A DNA stretch of 64,000 nt from a virus, in IMG/VR virus record IMGVR_UViG_3300027806_000001, positions 64,001-128,000 of that record. One strand, given 5' to 3'. The first letter of the stretch is position 1. Each line of letters starts with the position of its first letter. The position numbers were made by a program, and so were the translations under genes. This document shows, piece after piece, positions 6,763-57,516 of this stretch. The notes under the pieces are model-generated. The model did no database searches. It was given only the letters and a program-made list of their open reading frames with translations, and was not told where the DNA came from.

Positions 6763-7410
6763 TCACGTCGCATGCCCGGCCTCCCCTCTCGACACGCTCA
6801 GCCGCCACAGCACGTCCCTGGCCATCTCGAGGACCGTCGGCATGGCGTCCCTGGCCTTCGGCGCACCGCACAGCATGCAGGACCTCCACATGGAGTACGC
6901 CTGCATCACGAGCCAGCCTGGAAGCCGGCCGTCCTTCTCCAGGAAGTGCGCGCAGCAGGCGACCGTGCGGACCAGCGACGCCGCCGAGATGGCCTCCGAC
7001 CAGGTCGCGTTGAACGCCAACGCGGCCCCCGGCTCCATCGTCGACCAGACCGACATCTCCCTGTACTGCGCCACGGTGCCGTCCAGGCCGTCGTCGGCCG
7101 TCCGCAGGATCGCCTTGGCCCCCTGGCGGTCCCGCATGCGCTCGTCGTCGGTCATGGGGGTGCGGCGCCACTCGTGCGTCTTCCAGGCCAGGTACGCGTC
7201 CACCTTCCGCAGGGCCTCGACGGACGAATCGTGCACCAGCAGCGGCTCGACCTCCTCGGTCAGCCTGCGCAGGATCCCCATCTGCCTGAGGGCGGCGTTC
7301 TCGTCCCTGTTCCCCGCATCCAGCCGGTCGGCGATCCTGCCCTCGATCTCCAGCACCTCGATCAGCAGTTTGGCCCTCTGCTCCTCCCAATCTGCATCCT
7401 GCCCGGTCAT
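6763..7410 (-). CDS. Hypothetical protein
   Basis: Start MTGQDAD overlaps upstream stop. Confidence 0.5.
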   Translation of the reverse strand: MTGQDADWEEQRAKLLIEVLEIEGRIADRLDAGNRDENAALRQMGILRRLTEEVEPLLVHDSSVEALRKVDAYLAWKTHEWRRTPMTDDERMRDRQGAKAILRTADDGLDGTVAQYREMSVWSTMEPGAALAFNATWSEAISAASLVRTVACCAHFLEKDGRLPGWLVMQAYSMWRSCMLCGAPKARDAMPTVLEMARDVLWRLSVSRGEAGHAT

Positions 7411-24748: not shown

Positions 24749-24822
24749 CGTCCGCACCAGGACTTGAACCTGGAACCGCCTCGTTAGGACCGAGATGCGC
24801 TATCCAATTGCGCCATGCGGAC
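24749..24822 (-). tRNA. trnR: tRNA-Arg(CCT), CCA not encoded
   Basis: GTCCGCA/TGCGGAC acceptor, GCGC D stem, TCTCG-GTCCTAA-CGAGG anticodon arm, CCAGG-TTCAAGT-CCTGG T arm. Confidence 0.92.
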
Positions 24823-24859
24823 AACAAGCTTTCATTCTATCCAGCTGAGCTAAGAGGGC
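24823..24859 (-). pseudogene. Orphan tRNA 5' half
   Basis: GCCCTCT-TA-GCTCAGCTGGATAGAAT abutting tRNA-Arg. Confidence 0.5.
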
Positions 24860-24951
24860 AAAACCCCTGGCGGCCCGGATGAAGCCGCCAGAGGCAGAAA
24901 AGAAAAGCGCGCCCGCATGCAACCTTGACGGCTACGCGCGGTGCGCACTTT

Positions 24952-24980
24952 ATTCTAACCTGCGAGGTGGGGTTGTTTAG
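24952..24980 (-). promoter_or_regulatory. CTAAAC-N17-TAGAAT promoter for tRNA locus
   Basis: 17-nt spacer. Confidence 0.7.
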
Positions 24981-25687
24981 CCCTTCTTCTTGTTCTTCTT
25001 TTTGCCCTTGGACTGCGCCCTGGCCAGCTCGGCCGCCTGCACCTTGTCATAGGCGCGGGTTCCGTAGTAGCCCAGCGGAAGTCCGGCGGCGATCAACCCT
25101 CCGGCGATGTCTCCGCCCACGGCGGCAAAGGGCTTGAAGCCGTATTCGCTGGCCTCCTCGGGATCGATCCGACCCTTCATGGCCTCGATGGCCTTGGCCC
25201 GGCCGAGGTCGTGGGATCCGCCCAAAAAGAACAAAGACGAACTGGGCTCGAAGGCCTGCGGCTTCTTGGATCGAGCCTTGTCGAACTTCGCGGCGATGTC
25301 GTGCATCTTGTTGCGACGGATGGCCGACGCGATGAGATGGCCCAGGAACGCGCCGGCGACGCCTCCCCCGATCGCTCCCAGGCCCTGGACGTCGGGATCG
25401 CCGCTTGCCAGGTTGCCTATGCCATAGCCGGCCCCTGCGCCGAGGGCTATTCCCGGCAAGGTCATCAGGGCTCCGCTGGTCAGCGGGTTCTTGACGAAGA
25501 AGCCTGGATCCTCGCCGATGGCCTCGGCCATGGCGGTGGCCCGGCCTGGCCTGGACTCGAAGGCCGTGTTCCAGCCGGCAGGCCCCCAGTAGTCGCTGAA
25601 CAGACCTCCGCCCGAATCCATGTCGAGCAGTTCCTTGGCCTTGAGGGCCTGCTTGTAGCCAGGGAGATGGTGGAAGTAGTATGACAT
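24977..25687 (-). CDS. Putative virion internal protein (YxHH...KxA, Gly zipper)
   Basis: MSYYFHHLPGYKQA; GIALGAGAGYGIG and GGGVAGAFLG segments. Confidence 0.6.
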   Translation of the reverse strand: MSYYFHHLPGYKQALKAKELLDMDSGGGLFSDYWGPAGWNTAFESRPGRATAMAEAIGEDPGFFVKNPLTSGALMTLPGIALGAGAGYGIGNLASGDPDVQGLGAIGGGVAGAFLGHLIASAIRRNKMHDIAAKFDKARSKKPQAFEPSSSLFFLGGSHDLGRAKAIEAMKGRIDPEEASEYGFKPFAAVGGDIAGGLIAAGLPLGYYGTRAYDKVQAAELARAQSKGKKKNKKKG

Positions 25688-50165: not shown

Positions 50166-50641
50166 GCCCTTTCCTTTCTGGCCTTCGCGGCCTTGAGCAC
50201 CTTGGCCCAGTAGGCCTTGGTGCCCTGCTTGGAGTGGCCCTTTGGACCACCGTTGTGGATTCTGGCCAGGTCCTCCCAGGTGGCGCCCTTGGGGGCGTAC
50301 CTGGTCAGGTAGGCCTTGACGACCTCCCGGGCATACGCCCGGTTGGTCACGGCAGAGTAGCCTTGAGCCTTCAGGTCAGGCCTGCGCTCGACAGCGTCGA
50401 GCCAGTAGACACGCCAGATCTGAAAAGCCCCTAGCGCCTTGCCTCCGTCTCCGACGGCTTGGTCAGGGTTCGACTCTCCTCCGGACTCCACGGCCTGGAG
50501 CGCGTCCAGGAACGTGTCCCAGTCGAGGTCGACCCCTCCTACATCGCGGACATCCTGTCCACGGAGTTCGCCCTTGGCGAATGCCTCGGGCTGGCTGGCC
50601 GCCACGAGGGCGGCCACGATGAGAATGAGAACGGTCTTCAT
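50162..50641 (-). CDS. Secreted lysozyme-like muramidase (i-type/destabilase-like)
   Basis: Signal peptide; AVESGG, GDGG..LGAFQI...YW.DA, ARIHNGGP.G. Confidence 0.75.
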   Translation of the reverse strand: MKTVLILIVAALVAASQPEAFAKGELRGQDVRDVGGVDLDWDTFLDALQAVESGGESNPDQAVGDGGKALGAFQIWRVYWLDAVERRPDLKAQGYSAVTNRAYAREVVKAYLTRYAPKGATWEDLARIHNGGPKGHSKQGTKAYWAKVLKAAKARKERA

Positions 50642-50729
50642 TGAAGTTCCTTCCTCACCCTTCTCTCCTCCGTGCCGGGCTACGCCGCCCGGCAGGTCAT
50701 CCTGGGAATGCTACGGGCATCCCCGTCTT

Positions 50730-52306: not shown

Positions 52307-52861
52307 TCATGCCTTGACGTCGATCACGGGATCCTTGAGCCGCTGCTCGTTGATCCACTCGATCAGCTTCCTGGCCAGGATGTCGAATTCGCCGAGCTCG
52401 ATGTCCTCGAACTCCGGGGTACTCAAGGCCGGCCAGTGGCCATAGGTGCGGACTGCCCGCCGGAAGGCCACGGCCTTCACCCCTGCGGCCACGTCGTGGG
52501 CCAGATCCCGCAACGTGTCCTTGCGGTAGGTCTCGGCCTGGGTGGGAGAGTCGCAGCACCTGTCGCCCCTGTCCATGTTCTCGAGATCCACCTTGATCTC
52601 CAAGGCCGCGCCCTGCAGCCCCTTCTTCCAGGCGCCCGGCCAGATCTCCATGGCCGCAGAGGGCTCGGCCGGGGGCGGCCAGGTCATCTCGGGCCTGCGC
52701 TGCTCCAGAGGCAGCGCCTCCTCCTGGGCCAGGAGGGTCAGGACCCAGCTGGCTGCCCGGCGGGCCTCCTGCTCGTCCTCTAGGTAGACGGCCAGGGCCT
52801 GGTTGGCCTGGGCCGGGGTGCGTCGAGTCGACCTGGGGGCCATTGGTTGACGTTCTCTCAT
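52307..52861 (-). CDS. Hypothetical protein
   Basis: RBS aggaagga; first gene downstream of tRNA. Confidence 0.5.
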   Translation of the reverse strand: MRERQPMAPRSTRRTPAQANQALAVYLEDEQEARRAASWVLTLLAQEEALPLEQRRPEMTWPPPAEPSAAMEIWPGAWKKGLQGAALEIKVDLENMDRGDRCCDSPTQAETYRKDTLRDLAHDVAAGVKAVAFRRAVRTYGHWPALSTPEFEDIELGEFDILARKLIEWINEQRLKDPVIDVKA

Positions 52862-53025
52862 CGTTTCCTTCCTTTTCTCCTGGGTTGCGCCAGGTGTTGA
52901 GTGGACCGGGTGGGATTCGAACCCACGCCTTATCGATTCAGGTTTGTGTGACTTTAGTCACTCCCTGGACCATCTCATCGCCTTGGCCTTGAAGGGCTTT
53001 AGGCGTCGGACGCTGACTCCGGTAA

Positions 53026-53643
53026 TTAAGAGGACTTCACCTCTCCGGTGGTCTCTGCACCTTCCGCAGGTGTACCTGCGGCTTGGCTCAGGATTGCCTT
53101 GTGGAGGCGGTAGTGCCGCATCCATTTCCTTACGGCGTTGTCGCTCACGCCGTATTTTCTACCTATGGCAAGAAGGGAGTTTTCAGCAAGATCCTGTGTT
53201 AGATCATGTTTGCTGGGCCTTCTTGATCGGGAGGAGATGGCTTGTTTTCGGCACTGCTCTGAACATGTGGCCTTTTGGGCTCCCTGCAGGGTGGCTTCGC
53301 AGCCTTCACAATATTCAGCCTTTTTCCATTTAGGTTTCCCTGAATTCATCCGATTCGCACCCTCAGCTTTCGCTGAGGGGGCACCGCACGACAGCCAATG
53401 CTCGATCCTGGAATGCTGACCTCTGGTAAGCACCAGCAGGTTAGACAGGCGGTTGTTTGCCTTGTCCCCATCCAGATGATGGGTGACTTCGTCCTCCGTC
53501 AAAGGCCTCTCAAGTGACTGTTCCACCACCAGGATATGCTCGTACACATACCCCTTCCAGTTACTCGAGGTCATTGCAGAAGGATGATCTGGACGGTACA
53601 ACACCCTGTAGCCATTCAAGATTCGAGCTGACTTGTCGCCCAT
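53026..53643 (-). CDS. Intron-encoded HNH endonuclease with C-terminal HTH
   Basis: YVYEH..V.E..L.R.L...E.THH.DG.K.NN..SNL; IGRKYGVSDNAVRKW; RBS aggaga. Confidence 0.88.
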   Translation of the reverse strand: MGDKSARILNGYRVLYRPDHPSAMTSSNWKGYVYEHILVVEQSLERPLTEDEVTHHLDGDKANNRLSNLLVLTRGQHSRIEHWLSCGAPSAKAEGANRMNSGKPKWKKAEYCEGCEATLQGAQKATCSEQCRKQAISSRSRRPSKHDLTQDLAENSLLAIGRKYGVSDNAVRKWMRHYRLHKAILSQAAGTPAEGAETTGEVKSS

Positions 53644-53665
53644 GCTGTGTTCTCCTAAGGGCTGC

Positions 53666-53674
53666 ATTATAGCA
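53666..53674 (-). promoter_or_regulatory. Intron-internal extended -10 (TGcTATAAT) for HNH gene
   Basis: Lies in the loop of GGCTGC/GCAGCC inverted repeat, ~25 nt upstream of ATG. Confidence 0.6.
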
Positions 53675-53744
53675 GCCTCTCATTTGAACCTAGGTCATGG
53701 GTGCAGATGAGTCGACGGCTCTGGACCGCTGAGCTACCAGTCCG

Positions 53745-53780
53745 AAAAAAGAGGCCAGGCGGGTTTGACCCCGCCTGGCC
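53745..53780 (-). terminator. Intrinsic terminator between ncRNA and tRNA
   Basis: GGCCAGGCGGG-GTCAAA-CCCGCCTGGCC-TC-TTTTTT. Confidence 0.8.
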
Positions 53781-53799
53781 CTTGCATGTATCAATTACG

Positions 53800-54307
53800 C
53801 TAGCTCCCCTGGACCCGGACATGCAGCCGGCCAGGATCACTCTACGCGACATGCCACGCGCTTTCCATGGCATGAAGGGGGTCGAGGGGAGAATCCAGCC
53901 TTACCCCCTCTCTGTAGGCCCACCCCGAGGGGGCCTGAGCTGCGCCATGGTAGCTGGGCGTACCATGCGCTGAGGCTGCTCAGCCTGCGCTTGCTCCGCA
54001 ATGAAGGACGGCCGGCGCTTTGCCAACCCTGCCGTCCGCTGGCGCCGGTTTGCACCTGGAGAGTCCCAGGTGCGCTCCCCGGCCGGGGAGCCCGGCATCC
54101 AGCCGCGAGAAGAGCAGGGCGGCCCGGGTGGAGCCGCCCTGCCCGATTGCAGGACTCCCAGGCGACATTCGCCTGGGTGCCATATTAGCTCGCCTGGTCA
54201 TTTGCCAGGCTGGTTTCACGCGGTCGCCGCCCTGCCAGCGCCGCAACCGGAGTCCCTGGGGTGCAGGGGCTCGCGGGTTATCCGTGCGTCCGAATGATCG
54301 GAGCTAG
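53800..54307 (-). ncRNA. Large structured non-coding RNA candidate (~510 nt)
   Basis: Terminal stem CTAGCTCC/GGAGCTAG, second long-range helix GATCATTC/GAGTGATC, about a dozen hairpins, own promoter and terminator, no credible ORF. Confidence 0.72.
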
Positions 54308-54309
54308 TA

Positions 54310-54338
54310 ATACTACCCCGAATGACGTCCTTGTTTAG
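54310..54338 (-). promoter_or_regulatory. CTAAAC-N17-TAGTAT promoter of ncRNA
   Basis: Predicted +1 falls in the 5' strand of the closing stem. Confidence 0.72.
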
Positions 54339-54341
54339 CCG

Positions 54342-54554
54342 TCAGGAAAGGTCGTCCAGGATGTCGTCGGGGTCGTCCTGGACGGGCGGCAGGGGCTCCG
54401 GCCTGCGGCTGCGGCGCCCGGAGTGCTGGCCCTTGGGCCTTTCCATGGCCGAGGACCAGGCGCGCTGCGCCCGCTCGTACTCGTCCGGCCCGATGTAGGC
54501 CGAACTGACGATGTCCACGTAGGAGAATCCCGCTTCCTTCCGGCGCCTGCCCAT
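54342..54554 (-). CDS. Small hypothetical protein
   Basis: RBS ggagg; downstream of promoter 54607-54635. Confidence 0.5.
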   Translation of the reverse strand: MGRRRKEAGFSYVDIVSSAYIGPDEYERAQRAWSSAMERPKGQHSGRRSRRPEPLPPVQDDPDDILDDLS

Positions 54555-54606
54555 GGTCCCTGCCTCCGAGCTTCGGTTGAAGGCTCTGATGAACCTTGAT
54601 TACTTC

Positions 54607-54635
54607 ATTGTAACCGGGTATCCGTCCTTGTTTAG
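54607..54635 (-). promoter_or_regulatory. CTAAAC-N17-TACAAT promoter
   Basis: 17-nt spacer. Confidence 0.7.
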
Positions 54636-55384
54636 CCGCGCTTCGAGCGGCCCTTGCGGCGCCTCGAGGCCTTGCGGACGGAGTGCTTGACGCCGTCCAC
54701 CGCGGCGAACGACTTTCGAATGGCAGCCAGGTCCATGGTCTCGATGTACGGCTCCCCGTCGATGACCACTCCGCAGGCCACGATGGGCTTCTTGAGGTAC
54801 GCCGAGCCGTACTGCATGAACAGATGGTTGCGGTCCACGCCGCAGCCGACGTTCATGCCCCAGACCTTGGCCGTGGGACCTGCCTGGTAGGCGATGCCGC
54901 AGGCGCTGTGGTAGTGCCCGATGACCGTGGGCTGCATGCGCATCTTGGCGGCGTTGAACGCGGGGTGCTGCCCTCCGCAGCCCTCGCCGTGGTAGTAGTA
55001 GACGCCGTCGATCTCGACGTAGTCCTTCCACTTCCAGCTGTCCGTGCCGTACAGCTCGTTGAAGCCCTTGAGGTACAGCGATGGGATGCCGGCCTTGGCG
55101 TTCAGGCGCATGACCCGGCGGTCGTGGTTGCCGATGGTGATCTCCAGGTCGGGGAAGGCCTGGTGCAGGGCCTGCACCTGGGCGCAGGCGTTGCGGTACT
55201 CGTCGACTGCGCCCATGCTGTCGGGGTGCTTCTCGTGGAAGCTGATGCAGTGGTGGTCGACCACGTCCCCGATGTGCACGTTGCGGTCGGTGCGGTACTT
55301 GGACTGGACCCGGGCCAGCTGCCTGATGTAGTGCCTGTGCATGGCCGGCGCGTGGGTATCCCCTAGCACTAGTACTCTGGACAA
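54632..55384 (-). CDS. Phage metallophosphoesterase
   Basis: GDTH, GDVVD, GNHD, YHGE, GHYH. Confidence 0.88.
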   Translation of the reverse strand: MSRVLVLGDTHAPAMHRHYIRQLARVQSKYRTDRNVHIGDVVDHHCISFHEKHPDSMGAVDEYRNACAQVQALHQAFPDLEITIGNHDRRVMRLNAKAGIPSLYLKGFNELYGTDSWKWKDYVEIDGVYYYHGEGCGGQHPAFNAAKMRMQPTVIGHYHSACGIAYQAGPTAKVWGMNVGCGVDRNHLFMQYGSAYLKKPIVACGVVIDGEPYIETMDLAAIRKSFAAVDGVKHSVRKASRRRKGRSKRG

Positions 55385-55640
55385 GTTGCCTCCTGCGCAA
55401 AGCGCAGGTGAAGCCTAGTGCCTTGCCGCGGGATGTCAAGCCCGAAAGCGCGACAGCTAAGAAAAGGGGCGGGCTCGTCGCATTTCACGACGATCCAGGT
55501 CCGTGAGCCCCGACGAGGGGCCGGATGTGGCGCAAGGAGGATACGCCCTGCACCCGCCCCTGCCCCTAGGGGATCGTGCCGCGGCGCCCCCCGGGCCAGG
55601 CGGAAACGTTCCGCCTGGCCCGGGGTGTCACGAAAGGATG

Positions 55641-55877
55641 CTACTGCACCTCGAGGATGCCGATCCGGGACGCCCCGGACTCACCCTCGAGTACTGCGCT
55701 GTCCCACACGTCCAGGGCCTTGGAGGCCTGGGCCGGCACCTGGGTGCCGACGATGTGGGGGTTGGACAGCCGCCCACGGGCGGCCGCCAGCAGGCCGGCG
55801 ACGTCGCCGGCCTGCAGCTCCAGGGACTGGCCGGTGCGGTTGCCGGCCGGGTCGGTCAGATGGAGGACGCCCTTCAT
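55641..55877 (-). CDS. Small hypothetical protein
   Basis: Start MKGVLHL overlaps upstream stop. Confidence 0.5.
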   Translation of the reverse strand: MKGVLHLTDPAGNRTGQSLELQAGDVAGLLAAARGRLSNPHIVGTQVPAQASKALDVWDSAVLEGESGASRIGILEVQ

Positions 55878-56509
55878 GAGACCTCCTCCTCTTCCATGGC
55901 CAGGTCGTGCTGGCCTGCGGACGTCTTCGCGGGGGCCTTCGCCCCCCGAGGCTCCCCCGCGGAGGACTTCTCCTCCTGAGGGATGTAGAGGCGCCCTTCG
56001 GAATCCCGGCGCATAGCCTGGACCACCTGAAACACGTTGTTCAGCCTCTGGCGCTGAGCATCTCGGTCGGCCAGCTCGCCGAGCCGACGGTCCTGGGCGT
56101 CGGCCGCGGCCTGCCGCTGGGCCGGCGTGTTGAGCTGCTCCTTGCGGCCGGCCGGGGTCAGGCACGCGGCGATGAGCCACACGCCTCCCAGCACCGCCGC
56201 GACCGTCATGGCGACGGCCGTGAGGCTCATGCTCGTGATCGAGCTGTTGAAGCTCGATGCGACGGCCTGAGCCCCGGCGGACTCAGCGACGAGGACCGCT
56301 GTCTCGGCGGCCTCGGTGGCGCCCCAGGTGCTGGGCGACCACCAGGACTCCTCGATCTTCGGCATCTCGACCTTGGGCATCGCCGGCTTCGTGTCGGCGA
56401 ACATCGCGAGCGCGATCCACATCGGGATCGCGACGGCTGCGGCCATCGGGATGACCACCAGAAGCGCCCATCCGAGCCCTGACTTTCCGCTGTCCTTGAA
56501 GTTTGCCAT
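55874..56509 (-). CDS. Membrane protein (2 TM)
   Basis: Start MANFKD after RBS aaggaaga. Confidence 0.55.
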   Translation of the reverse strand: MANFKDSGKSGLGWALLVVIPMAAAVAIPMWIALAMFADTKPAMPKVEMPKIEESWWSPSTWGATEAAETAVLVAESAGAQAVASSFNSSITSMSLTAVAMTVAAVLGGVWLIAACLTPAGRKEQLNTPAQRQAAADAQDRRLGELADRDAQRQRLNNVFQVVQAMRRDSEGRLYIPQEEKSSAGEPRGAKAPAKTSAGQHDLAMEEEEVS

Positions 56510-56586
56510 TTGTCTTTTTCTTCCTTTCTTGAAGGCACCCGGGTCCGGCAACGCGCCTTTCCCGGGTGCTATTGACGTGGCATGTA

Positions 56587-56615
56587 ATACTCACACGCAA
56601 ACGCCCGTTGTTTAG
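56587..56615 (-). promoter_or_regulatory. CTAAAC-N17-GAGTAT promoter
   Basis: 17-nt spacer, CGTGT. Confidence 0.7.
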
Positions 56616-56630
56616 CCCGCCCCTTGAGGG

Positions 56631-56667
56631 CTAAAAGAAACCCCCGGCGCCACATGGCGCCGGGGGA
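56631..56667 (-). terminator. Intrinsic terminator
   Basis: CCCCCGGCGCC-ATGT-GGCGCCGGGGG-TTTCTTTTAGC. Confidence 0.8.
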
Positions 56668-56687
56668 TCTCGGTGGGGGAACTCAGC

Positions 56688-57323
56688 TCAGCTGTTCCAC
56701 CACCACTTGATCCGGGCGATGATGCCCGGATTCGACATGCTCTCAATCTCGCGCTCGTCCTCCAGACGAGCGCGGATGACCTCCTCGGTCATCTGGATAT
56801 CGCCGCTGATCGCGGCGAGCACCTGCGCCTCGGCGTATGCCGGGACGTGCAACTGATCCTGGCCGAGGGTGTTCTTGATGAACACCTCTCCTCGGACCTC
56901 GGCCGCCTGCAGGCGTCCAGCCTGCAGGTGATCCGGGGAGGACACAGCCTTCGCCGTGTCCTGGACGATGACCGTGCCCGCCAGGGCACGGTCGGTGATC
57001 ACTTCGCCCCGGTAGACCGGGACAAGGTGATTAAGGGTCTGCCCCGCGGTCGGGGCAGTCTCGAGGGACTTGAGGAGGTCGATGACCTCATTCGCCTTCG
57101 ACTCAGCCGCGGCCTTCTTGGCCGCCGCCACCGCCGCGGCCTTCTTGGCCTTGGCGGTCTCCGCGGCCGTAGCCGCGGGAGTGGCGGCCGGAGCCGCCGG
57201 GGTGGTGGCGGCCGGAGCCGCCGCGGGAGTGGCGGCCGGAGCCGCCGGGGTCGTCGCCGTCGCGGCGCTCCCCATGGCCAGGAAGGCGAGCGCGGCGACG
57301 ACGGTACGGATGAGAGTCTTCAT
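56688..57323 (-). CDS. Secreted protein with Ala/Pro/Thr-rich linker
   Basis: Signal peptide MKTLIRTVVAALAFLAMGSA; (ATPAAAPA) repeats. Confidence 0.65.
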   Translation of the reverse strand: MKTLIRTVVAALAFLAMGSAATATTPAAPAATPAAAPAATTPAAPAATPAATAAETAKAKKAAAVAAAKKAAAESKANEVIDLLKSLETAPTAGQTLNHLVPVYRGEVITDRALAGTVIVQDTAKAVSSPDHLQAGRLQAAEVRGEVFIKNTLGQDQLHVPAYAEAQVLAAISGDIQMTEEVIRARLEDEREIESMSNPGIIARIKWWWNS

Positions 57324-57487
57324 TGTGTTCCTTTCGTGAACAGGGTGCCCCCGAGGTCTAGGCAGCCGGCACCCCGGCTGCCAGGAATAGACCTGCAGGC
57401 AACGTGCCAACAGGTATTCCCGACCTATGTATGGATACCACGGAAAGGCACCCTGTTTAGGGTGGAACCGGTGCGGACCCACATAGA

Positions 57488-57516
57488 ATAATAACACAAA
57501 AAGGGCCCTTATTTAG
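57488..57516 (-). promoter_or_regulatory. CTAAAT-N17-TATTAT promoter
   Basis: 17-nt spacer, TGTGT. Confidence 0.7.

Follow-up and report, generated by a model that had tools for sequence, protein, structure and literature searches.

Genomic setting

The window analysed here comprises 64,000 nucleotides, namely bases 64001-128000 of an IMG/VR virus record that is 183,468 bp long, carries direct terminal repeats and has a G+C content of about 66%; its source is an uncultured, high-GC freshwater phage. A non-coding RNA gene of ~520-560 nt lies on the minus strand at 53745-54307, terminator included. All neighbouring genes are on the same strand. In the direction of transcription, the order is a metallophosphoesterase gene (54632-55384, minus; Pfam Metallophos, phrog_221), an ORF for a 70-aa protein (54342-54554, minus) directly upstream of the RNA, the RNA itself, a tRNA, and genes without assigned function. 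The 70-aa protein, arginine-rich at its N-terminus (MGRRRKE...) and acidic in its tail, gives no match in Pfam or PHROG. It is kept directly upstream of the locus in all relatives, also in those that do not have the RNA, and is, speculatively, a candidate RNA-binding or antitermination factor.

Related loci, referred to below by L numbers, were gathered via the phosphoesterase (6 viral and 80 metagenomic) and via exact searches with variants of the 70-aa protein (~30 more); homologues of the RNA were recognised among them by blastn and nhmmer. Full-length homologues are found in L137, L141, L136, L135, L131/L132, L143-L145, L127-L130, L102-L104, L105 and L146, and fragments in L011, L138-L140 and L142. 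L011 and L015, the two closest matches in the initial searches, are truncated where their contigs end. The set amounts to 11 distinct sequences (the window and ten others) from related metagenomic phage contigs, with 68-97% identity, and the RNA is present in a single copy per genome. A clade of uncultured high-GC freshwater phages is the carrier of an uncatalogued family of predicted large, structured RNAs.

Transcription signals and the adjoining tRNA

A reading of the sequence alone had proposed that the RNA starts from a minus-strand promoter, CTAAAC-17-TAGTAT. This element (GCTAAAC-N17-TAGTAT; 54310..54339, minus) turns out to be a recurrent phage motif; searched for as GCTAAAC-N16-19-TAnnAT, it has three copies in the window, where 0.00 are expected, and the genome as a whole has four. 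All of them lie on the minus strand; one stands ahead of the RNA, and the others ahead of the 70-aa ORF, the leader of a tRNA-Arg and one further unit. A variant is found upstream of a lysozyme-like gene. A sigma-70 scan called no promoter at the position of the RNA promoter. Among relatives, the spacer sequence drifts between two conserved hexamers, which is the pattern expected from a real promoter.

The tRNA-Arg(CCT) unit (window 24822-24981, minus) has its own copy, GCTAAAC-N17-TAGAAT, ~130 nt upstream. Sequence reminiscent of the 5' half of a tRNA is found at window ~24835-24859. The leader of this unit harbours two elements that each consist of a hairpin and a U-tract. One of these elements repeats exactly, in the L102-type spelling and followed by a U-tract, the 21-nt tip of a 14-bp hairpin in the RNA (see below). 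The shared tip, the same promoter and the U-tract suggest that tRNA precursors may have in common a hairpin for protein binding or processing.

The claimed terminator was found by the consensus scan as a 12-bp stem with a U-tract (53745..53781, minus). Its stem covaries among relatives, and the terminators of L131 and L143 differ though the RNAs are 97% identical. Only one base (53744) separates the U-tract from the tRNA that had also been proposed, here recognised as tRNA-Met(CAT) (52902..53743, minus). This tRNA is split: its exons, 53743-53707 and 52938-52902, flank a 768-nt group I intron (53706-52939, minus) that is inserted after the anticodon, matches Rfam Intron_gpI at 52946-53407 with 55.9 bits, and contains an HNH ORF (53026-53667, minus; HNH_3 match). 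In relatives, the two halves, which match window 53750-53707 and 52938-52864, are contiguous in an intact 74-nt tRNA-Met(CAT); the window tRNA therefore consists of two exons around an intron. This interruption is also why ARAGORN called no tRNA at the site. The tRNA is intact in most relatives; the group I intron is also present in L011, and the intron of L105 is much shorter (~280 nt) and has no ORF. Three loci (L127:3860-4230, L102:5350-5640, L105:4700-4915) carry a second conserved hairpin-rich stretch of ~215-370 nt with its own terminator, located between the terminator of the RNA and the tRNA; the window has no such stretch.

Immediately behind tRNA-Met comes the ribosome-binding site of the next gene, and no promoter is visible. 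Because the U-tract ends one base before the tRNA and the next gene is without a visible promoter, the RNA would be the first product of a promoter-RNA-tRNA-gene operon, and the one-base gap implies that the tRNA and downstream genes would depend on read-through.

This arrangement, which leaves no room for a promoter between terminator and tRNA, invites a reading in cis: the RNA might be a leader or attenuator that sets read-through past the terminator into tRNA-Met and the downstream genes, either by binding a phage factor (perhaps the 70-aa protein) or a metabolite, or by working as a processive antitermination RNA. Such a role would also fit the hairpin tip that the RNA shares with the tRNA-Arg leader, where a U-tract follows as well. 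The RNA is, however, far larger than known attenuators or antitermination RNAs, with ~520 nt and 23 helices, and riboswitch and T-box models gave no match at E<=10. A cis leader is thus conceivable but doubtful, and the 3' end of the RNA, discussed below, speaks on both sides of the matter.

Fold strength and coding potential

The minus strand of 53800-54307 (508 nt) has a minimum free energy of -291.9 kcal/mol, compared with -244 for shuffled sequences (z -6.37); for the RNA plus terminator, z reaches -9.16. The plus strand of the region folds less strongly (z -5.4). In a scan of the genome with 704 windows of 500 nt, the RNA locus ranks third, and fold strength is comparable in two nearby regions within window 55500-57500. 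One stretch, window 55385-55873 (minus; z -7.2), contains a 17-bp terminator and more long hairpins, and part of it may still be coding. Another is window 56500-57500 (minus); both take top ranks in the scan, with structure on a par with that of the RNA.

Variable columns in the alignment of the RNA are spread evenly over the three codon phases (76/78/73, p 0.92), as opposed to 56/34/122 (p 1e-13) for the phosphoesterase gene of the same loci, which served as control. Gap runs are 1, 2 or 4 nt long in most cases, and no reading frame stays open through the RNA in any homologue. The description of the locus as a highly structured non-coding RNA with no credible ORF is upheld by these data together with the strand-specific fold, and a conserved ORF in homologues, which would have spoken for a protein-coding gene, was not found.

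The strong folding of other intergenic regions, and of the reverse strand, would also be compatible with a hairpin-rich spacer that has no RNA function, its structure acting at the DNA level or arising by chance in a GC-rich genome. The comparative analysis of the RNA argues against this.

Consensus structure and core domains

For an alignment of the 11 sequences (A6), RNAalifold gives 130 pairs; one doubtful 2-bp long-range helix was dropped, and 128 pairs in 23 helices were counted. Standard pairs make up 96.4% of cells; sliding the 3' partners by 1-3 columns lowers this to 35-47%. Covariation is present, with both-side changes in 29 pairs (2-7 when slid) and a covariation score of 0.201 (0.03-0.05 when slid); on four of five measures, the observed values were reached by 0 of 500 shuffles. 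The strand can also be assigned: G.U pairs are invariant at A6 columns 37:57, 142:172 and 153:161, many of the one-sided changes are C-G to U-G, and covariance model R1 gives the minus strand 173.5 bits and the plus strand 30.6, which together fix the RNA strand as minus. The locus thus has the general marks of a structured non-coding RNA, namely covariation above controls, no coding signature and a defined strand. Compensatory changes in so many pairs, long-range helices, invariant G.U pairs that work on the minus strand only, and single strands that are 100% conserved make a functionless spacer extremely improbable.

The core has two domains. Domain I (54105..54268, minus; A6 columns 14-180) begins with hairpin H1 (loop CACCC), followed by H2 and a multi-stem junction. 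The junction is closed by a 6-bp long-range helix, GCG.GAA/UUC.CGC, and encloses three short hairpins and the 14-bp hairpin. The H2 helix is identical in 11/11 sequences and GGGAGUCCUG is an invariant single strand within the junction; both are retained even between lineages whose overall identity is only 68%. Compensatory changes are seen at A6 columns 14:28, 65:176, 75:88, 97:101 and 144:170, and in six pairs of 106-128. Domain II (53952..54103, minus; A6 columns 182-346) consists of a GCUGG/CCAGC junction with two hairpins, a GGACGG/CCGUCC hairpin and two more hairpins, with compensatory changes at A6 columns 184:247, 191:241, 197:210, 260:276, 313:345 and 335:340. It is followed by a variable region (53877..53951, minus; A6 columns 347-426), which is poorly aligned, has 4- and 6-nt indels, and differs in sequence and fold among sub-lineages.

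The five internal hairpins named in the sequence-only reading are all part of the consensus fold. At least one both-side pair is seen for four of them: CCCAGGCG/CGCCTGGG (six), GCAGGGCGGC, CATGCCA, and the neighbours of GCACCTGG. Hairpin GGACGGC/GCCGTCC never varies, and GCACCTGG/CCAGGTGC itself varies on one side only. A tertiary pairing of GGGAGUCC with the 3' flank of H1 or with an ACUC loop was considered and rejected, as it is not conserved in A6 by eye. As predicted from the alignments, the RNA is modular, with a ~320-nt conserved core, a variable insert and a ~95-nt 3' module.

The 5' end and the AAA_33 gene

In the window, L137, L141, L136, L135 and L146, the core is preceded by a leader of ~38 nt (54269..54307, minus). 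It forms a local hairpin, UCCGA-UCAU-UCGGA, which covaries in L146 (CUCCG/CGGAG), and it contains both 5' strands of two helices that had been proposed to close the transcript, an 8-bp end-to-end stem (CTAGCTCC/GGAGCTAG) and an adjacent long-range helix (GATCATTC/GAGTGATC). Each of the two is perfect in the window sequence only. In L137, L136 and L135, which are 90-97% identical, CATGCTCC stands opposite GAAGCTAG, so that 3/8 positions of the end-to-end stem are mismatched; the second helix is interrupted by an A.A mismatch in L141, L136, L135 and L011. Five relatives are without the 5' strands altogether, L146 keeps the leader without the whole 3' partner region, and no compensated change occurs in either helix among relatives. 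The closing helices were therefore rejected on comparative grounds, and pairing of the two ends, as a predicted family architecture, is wrong. Since the leader is not always present and the closing helices are not conserved, the conserved RNA begins at H1, at about 54268.

The 5' side is further complicated by an ATPase/kinase-like gene (Pfam AAA_33, phrog_2071) that lies between promoter and RNA in five relatives. Where it is inserted (L102-L105, L127-L132, L143-L145) the leader is absent, and in the five relatives the RNA starts 5-8 nt past the AAA_33 stop codon. The claim that the RNA has a promoter of its own thus stands for window-type genomes only; in the five relatives, the same promoter drives the AAA_33 gene first. 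The position of this gene shifts among close relatives (L102:4287-4850, L131:2238-2744, L146:147-572): some have it between the small ORF and the RNA, others ahead of the phosphoesterase. The genome of the window lacks it. Together, AAA_33 and the metallophosphoesterase recall the kinase and phosphoesterase parts of RNA-repair enzymes.

The short distance to the AAA_33 stop codon would fit a second role in cis, that of a 3' UTR, processing or stability element for the upstream mRNA and the tRNA precursor, with no function as free RNA. Against this, the RNA is retained in window-type genomes and in L146, where no gene precedes it in the transcript, and the invariance of its loop and junction sequences would be unusual for a stabiliser.

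The 3' module and its likely pseudoknot

The 3' module (~95 nt; 53783..53874, minus) has an 8-bp hairpin with a conserved 9-nt loop and a CCUGG/CCAGG hairpin. The loop of the latter carries GCAUG, which could pair with CAUGC ~22 nt downstream. In alignment A10 (nine sequences, including L029), 92.6% of cells are paired with the pseudoknot included, compared with 19-41% when slid, and six pairs change on both sides. Pair 60:90, which flanks the invariant core of the pseudoknot, is C-G, U-G or U-A, and the module of L007 has GGCAUGG with CCAUGCC. The GCAUG/CAUGC pseudoknot is thus likely.

Core and module do not always occur together. The module alone is found after a lysozyme-like (Destabilase) gene in L029 (82 bits with model R2) and L007 (46 bits), and in L007 it adjoins the tRNA with no terminator; L146 has the core without the module. 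In the window phage genome, the module is single-copy and the lysozyme-like gene is located at 50198-50695, 3 kb downstream of the RNA. The place of the module behind a lysozyme-like ORF would agree with a UTR element; that core and module are separable counts against it.

For a cis leader, it is relevant that the pseudoknot strand of the module ends 1-2 nt before the terminator stem, and that CCUGGCC in the module is, by eye, complementary to one terminator strand in the window, L131, L143 and L029. However, L131 and L143 have identical modules and different terminators, with the complementarity on opposite terminator strands, so no consistent antiterminator results and the model was rejected; terminators are interchangeable between near-identical RNAs. 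In addition, L146 keeps core and terminator without the module, and L007 has the module without a terminator.

Origin of the RNA from a decayed gene was considered for both of the genes found upstream of it in relatives and was rejected. A tblastn comparison of the L007/L029 lysozyme-like proteins with the RNA region gave only chance-level matches (best E 0.07), and AAA_33 gave no significant match anywhere in the window phage genome (best E 0.02). The AAA_33 protein matches an 18-residue stretch in the RNA region (E 0.03), which comes from the part of the called ORF that reads into the RNA.

Distribution of the family and the site upstream of tRNA-Met

A blastn search of 50,697 GenBank phages found no homologue. 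Pattern scans of IMG/VR with three RNA motifs returned only known relatives or chance matches inside coding genes, and a pattern scan of species-representative genomes gave 19 matches, all due to chance and in coding sequence; four of the 19 lie in a conserved-looking open stretch in Bacteroidales MAGs. The family is narrowly distributed.

Neither nhmmer nor covariance model R1 found the core in the lower-GC relatives (L002, L005, L016-L043), which have 460-775 nt of non-coding DNA at the equivalent site. In L002, this DNA folds at chance level (z -1.4). The AT-rich L005 has a 710-nt ORF-poor stretch (L005:6950-7660, plus) with repeated terminator-like hairpins and z -11.8, its sequence being unrelated to the window RNA. 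In L019, a Pistol self-cleaving ribozyme (L019:1603-1678, plus; 53.6 bits, gathering score 34.5) is located in the non-coding DNA that separates the small ORF from tRNA-Met; sequence similar to it is also seen in L005 near 7010-7060. Given these differing elements at the same spot, the site upstream of tRNA-Met is a hot spot for various RNA elements.

The Pistol ribozyme indicates that transcripts are processed at the equivalent position in relatives, which is a further point in favour of a UTR, processing or stability element. Weighed against the evidence from genomes with no gene upstream, this reading is decidedly unlikely.

Comparison with RNA family models

At the gathering score, an Rfam cmscan of the whole window gave nothing on the RNA; with permissive filters, positions 52500-54800 gave 14 matches at E<=10, none of them to ROOL or GOLLD. 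The RNA of L102 and other relatives is without an Rfam match, too. By these scans, the RNA is thus no detectable ROOL, GOLLD, RNase P, tmRNA or intron, and the earlier suggestion of a distant member of ROOL or GOLLD finds no support in the covariance-model scan at E<=10. Its other exclusions are borne out. No RNase P model matched at E<=10, in keeping with the lack of the RNase P motif; GGGAGUCCUG loosely recalls a strand of RNase P P4, with no complementary partner conserved. ARAGORN found no tmRNA in the window and Rfam gave no match, and intron models matched only the intron that splits the tRNA, a separate element (52946-53407).

These scans also bear on whether the RNA could be an unrecognised ribozyme, self-cleaving or acting on the tRNA, or a degenerate mobile intron. 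It is large and multi-domain with invariant junction nucleotides, a group I intron lies next to it, and the equivalent position in relatives is occupied by a Pistol ribozyme. No ribozyme or intron model matched at E<=10, however, exon-like flanks and a homing ORF are absent, and there is a single copy per genome, which leaves this explanation very unlikely.

A survey of IMG/VR predicted 8,495 candidate structured RNAs (PMC10690425). It names no large tRNA-adjacent RNA and does not mention ROOL or GOLLD. As it drew on the same viral collection, parts of the present RNA could be among its unnamed candidates.

Proposed role

The favoured reading, held with about even confidence, is that of a stable, trans-acting RNA that would be derived from a tRNA operon transcript. 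Transcription would start at the recurrent-type phage promoter, and the RNA would fold into ~23 helices that make up the two-domain core, variable insert and pseudoknotted 3' module, ending at the strong intrinsic terminator. The 3' end may be formed by termination, or by an RNase P cut of the read-through precursor at the 5' end of the tRNA; either route would leave the same stable, hairpin-capped RNA. Once released, the RNA would act in trans as a folded particle, be it as a protein-binding scaffold or decoy, or as an RNA-only assembly like ROOL and GOLLD.

A trans role is favoured on three grounds: the RNA is complex, it has invariant single strands and an invariant H2, and its core does not depend on what lies upstream. 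By the same token, the RNA is probably not a cis signal: its size, invariant single strands and invariant H2 exceed the needs of a leader or terminator, and the core keeps its place and sequence under either a promoter or AAA_33 upstream. Several observations count against the trans reading. The RNA always adjoins a tRNA, which would also fit a cis role; in five relatives it is without its own promoter and looks like a 3' UTR of AAA_33; other intergenic stretches of the genome are about equally structured; and the family is narrow.

A more specific version has a new class of RNA transcribed as the 5' body of a tRNA precursor, released by termination or RNase P and then either forming an RNA-only multimer or capturing a host factor, as an independent analogue of ROOL and GOLLD. 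Here the multimer would assemble via the palindromic loops GCAUGC and CGGCCG, which could in principle mediate self-association. This version is rather unlikely.

Large ornate RNAs without a known job are, to our knowledge, rare, and all examples (ROOL, GOLLD, OLE, raiA) came from comparative genomics. Each well-supported new family is a further way into the question of why such RNAs are kept by phages next to their tRNAs. The present one offers natural experiments, with members that have or lack the 3' module, that have a promoter or a kinase gene upstream, and that end in different terminators, as well as a clean architecture, the 3' end of the RNA being possibly set by the tRNA-processing machinery. 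Immediate impact is limited by the narrow distribution and by having no cultured host.

Comparison with known systems

Bacteriophage T4 provides a precedent for stable non-tRNA RNAs encoded beside phage tRNAs. Its 'species 1' and 'species 2' are stable RNAs of ~140 nt in the tRNA cluster that share a precursor with tRNAs and are freed by tRNA-processing enzymes. The window RNA differs from these: it is ~4x larger and has, besides two conserved domains, a pseudoknotted module. By analogy only, it may also be compared with MALAT1/mascRNA, where a large RNA lies upstream of a tRNA-like element and has its 3' end set by an RNase P cut and shielded by a structured element. The likeness is that of a large RNA directly upstream of a tRNA, and in L007 the module adjoins the tRNA without a terminator; unlike MALAT1, the window RNA usually ends in a bacterial intrinsic terminator hairpin and has no triple-helix element.

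The closest comparison is with ROOL and GOLLD, large ornate phage and prophage RNAs that form RNA-only multimeric cages (bioRxiv 10.1101/2024.12.08.627333). In common with these, the window RNA is in the 0.5-0.8 kb size class, has many helices, is phage-encoded and tRNA-adjacent, and has no known associated protein. Its context also resembles that of ROOL (phage, next to a tRNA, ~0.6 kb), with ~520-560 nt in a 183-kb phage. It differs in matching neither of their Rfam models at E<=10, with no shared motifs seen; in coming from one phage clade only; and in probably being co-transcribed with its tRNA, whereas ROOL and GOLLD are merely nearby. The notion of a new class of large phage RNA is supported by 11 sequences, covariation, no coding signal and no Rfam match at E<=10, and, judged by comparative sequence analysis, the family is real, well supported and new, and of the same kind as the large ornate phage RNAs.
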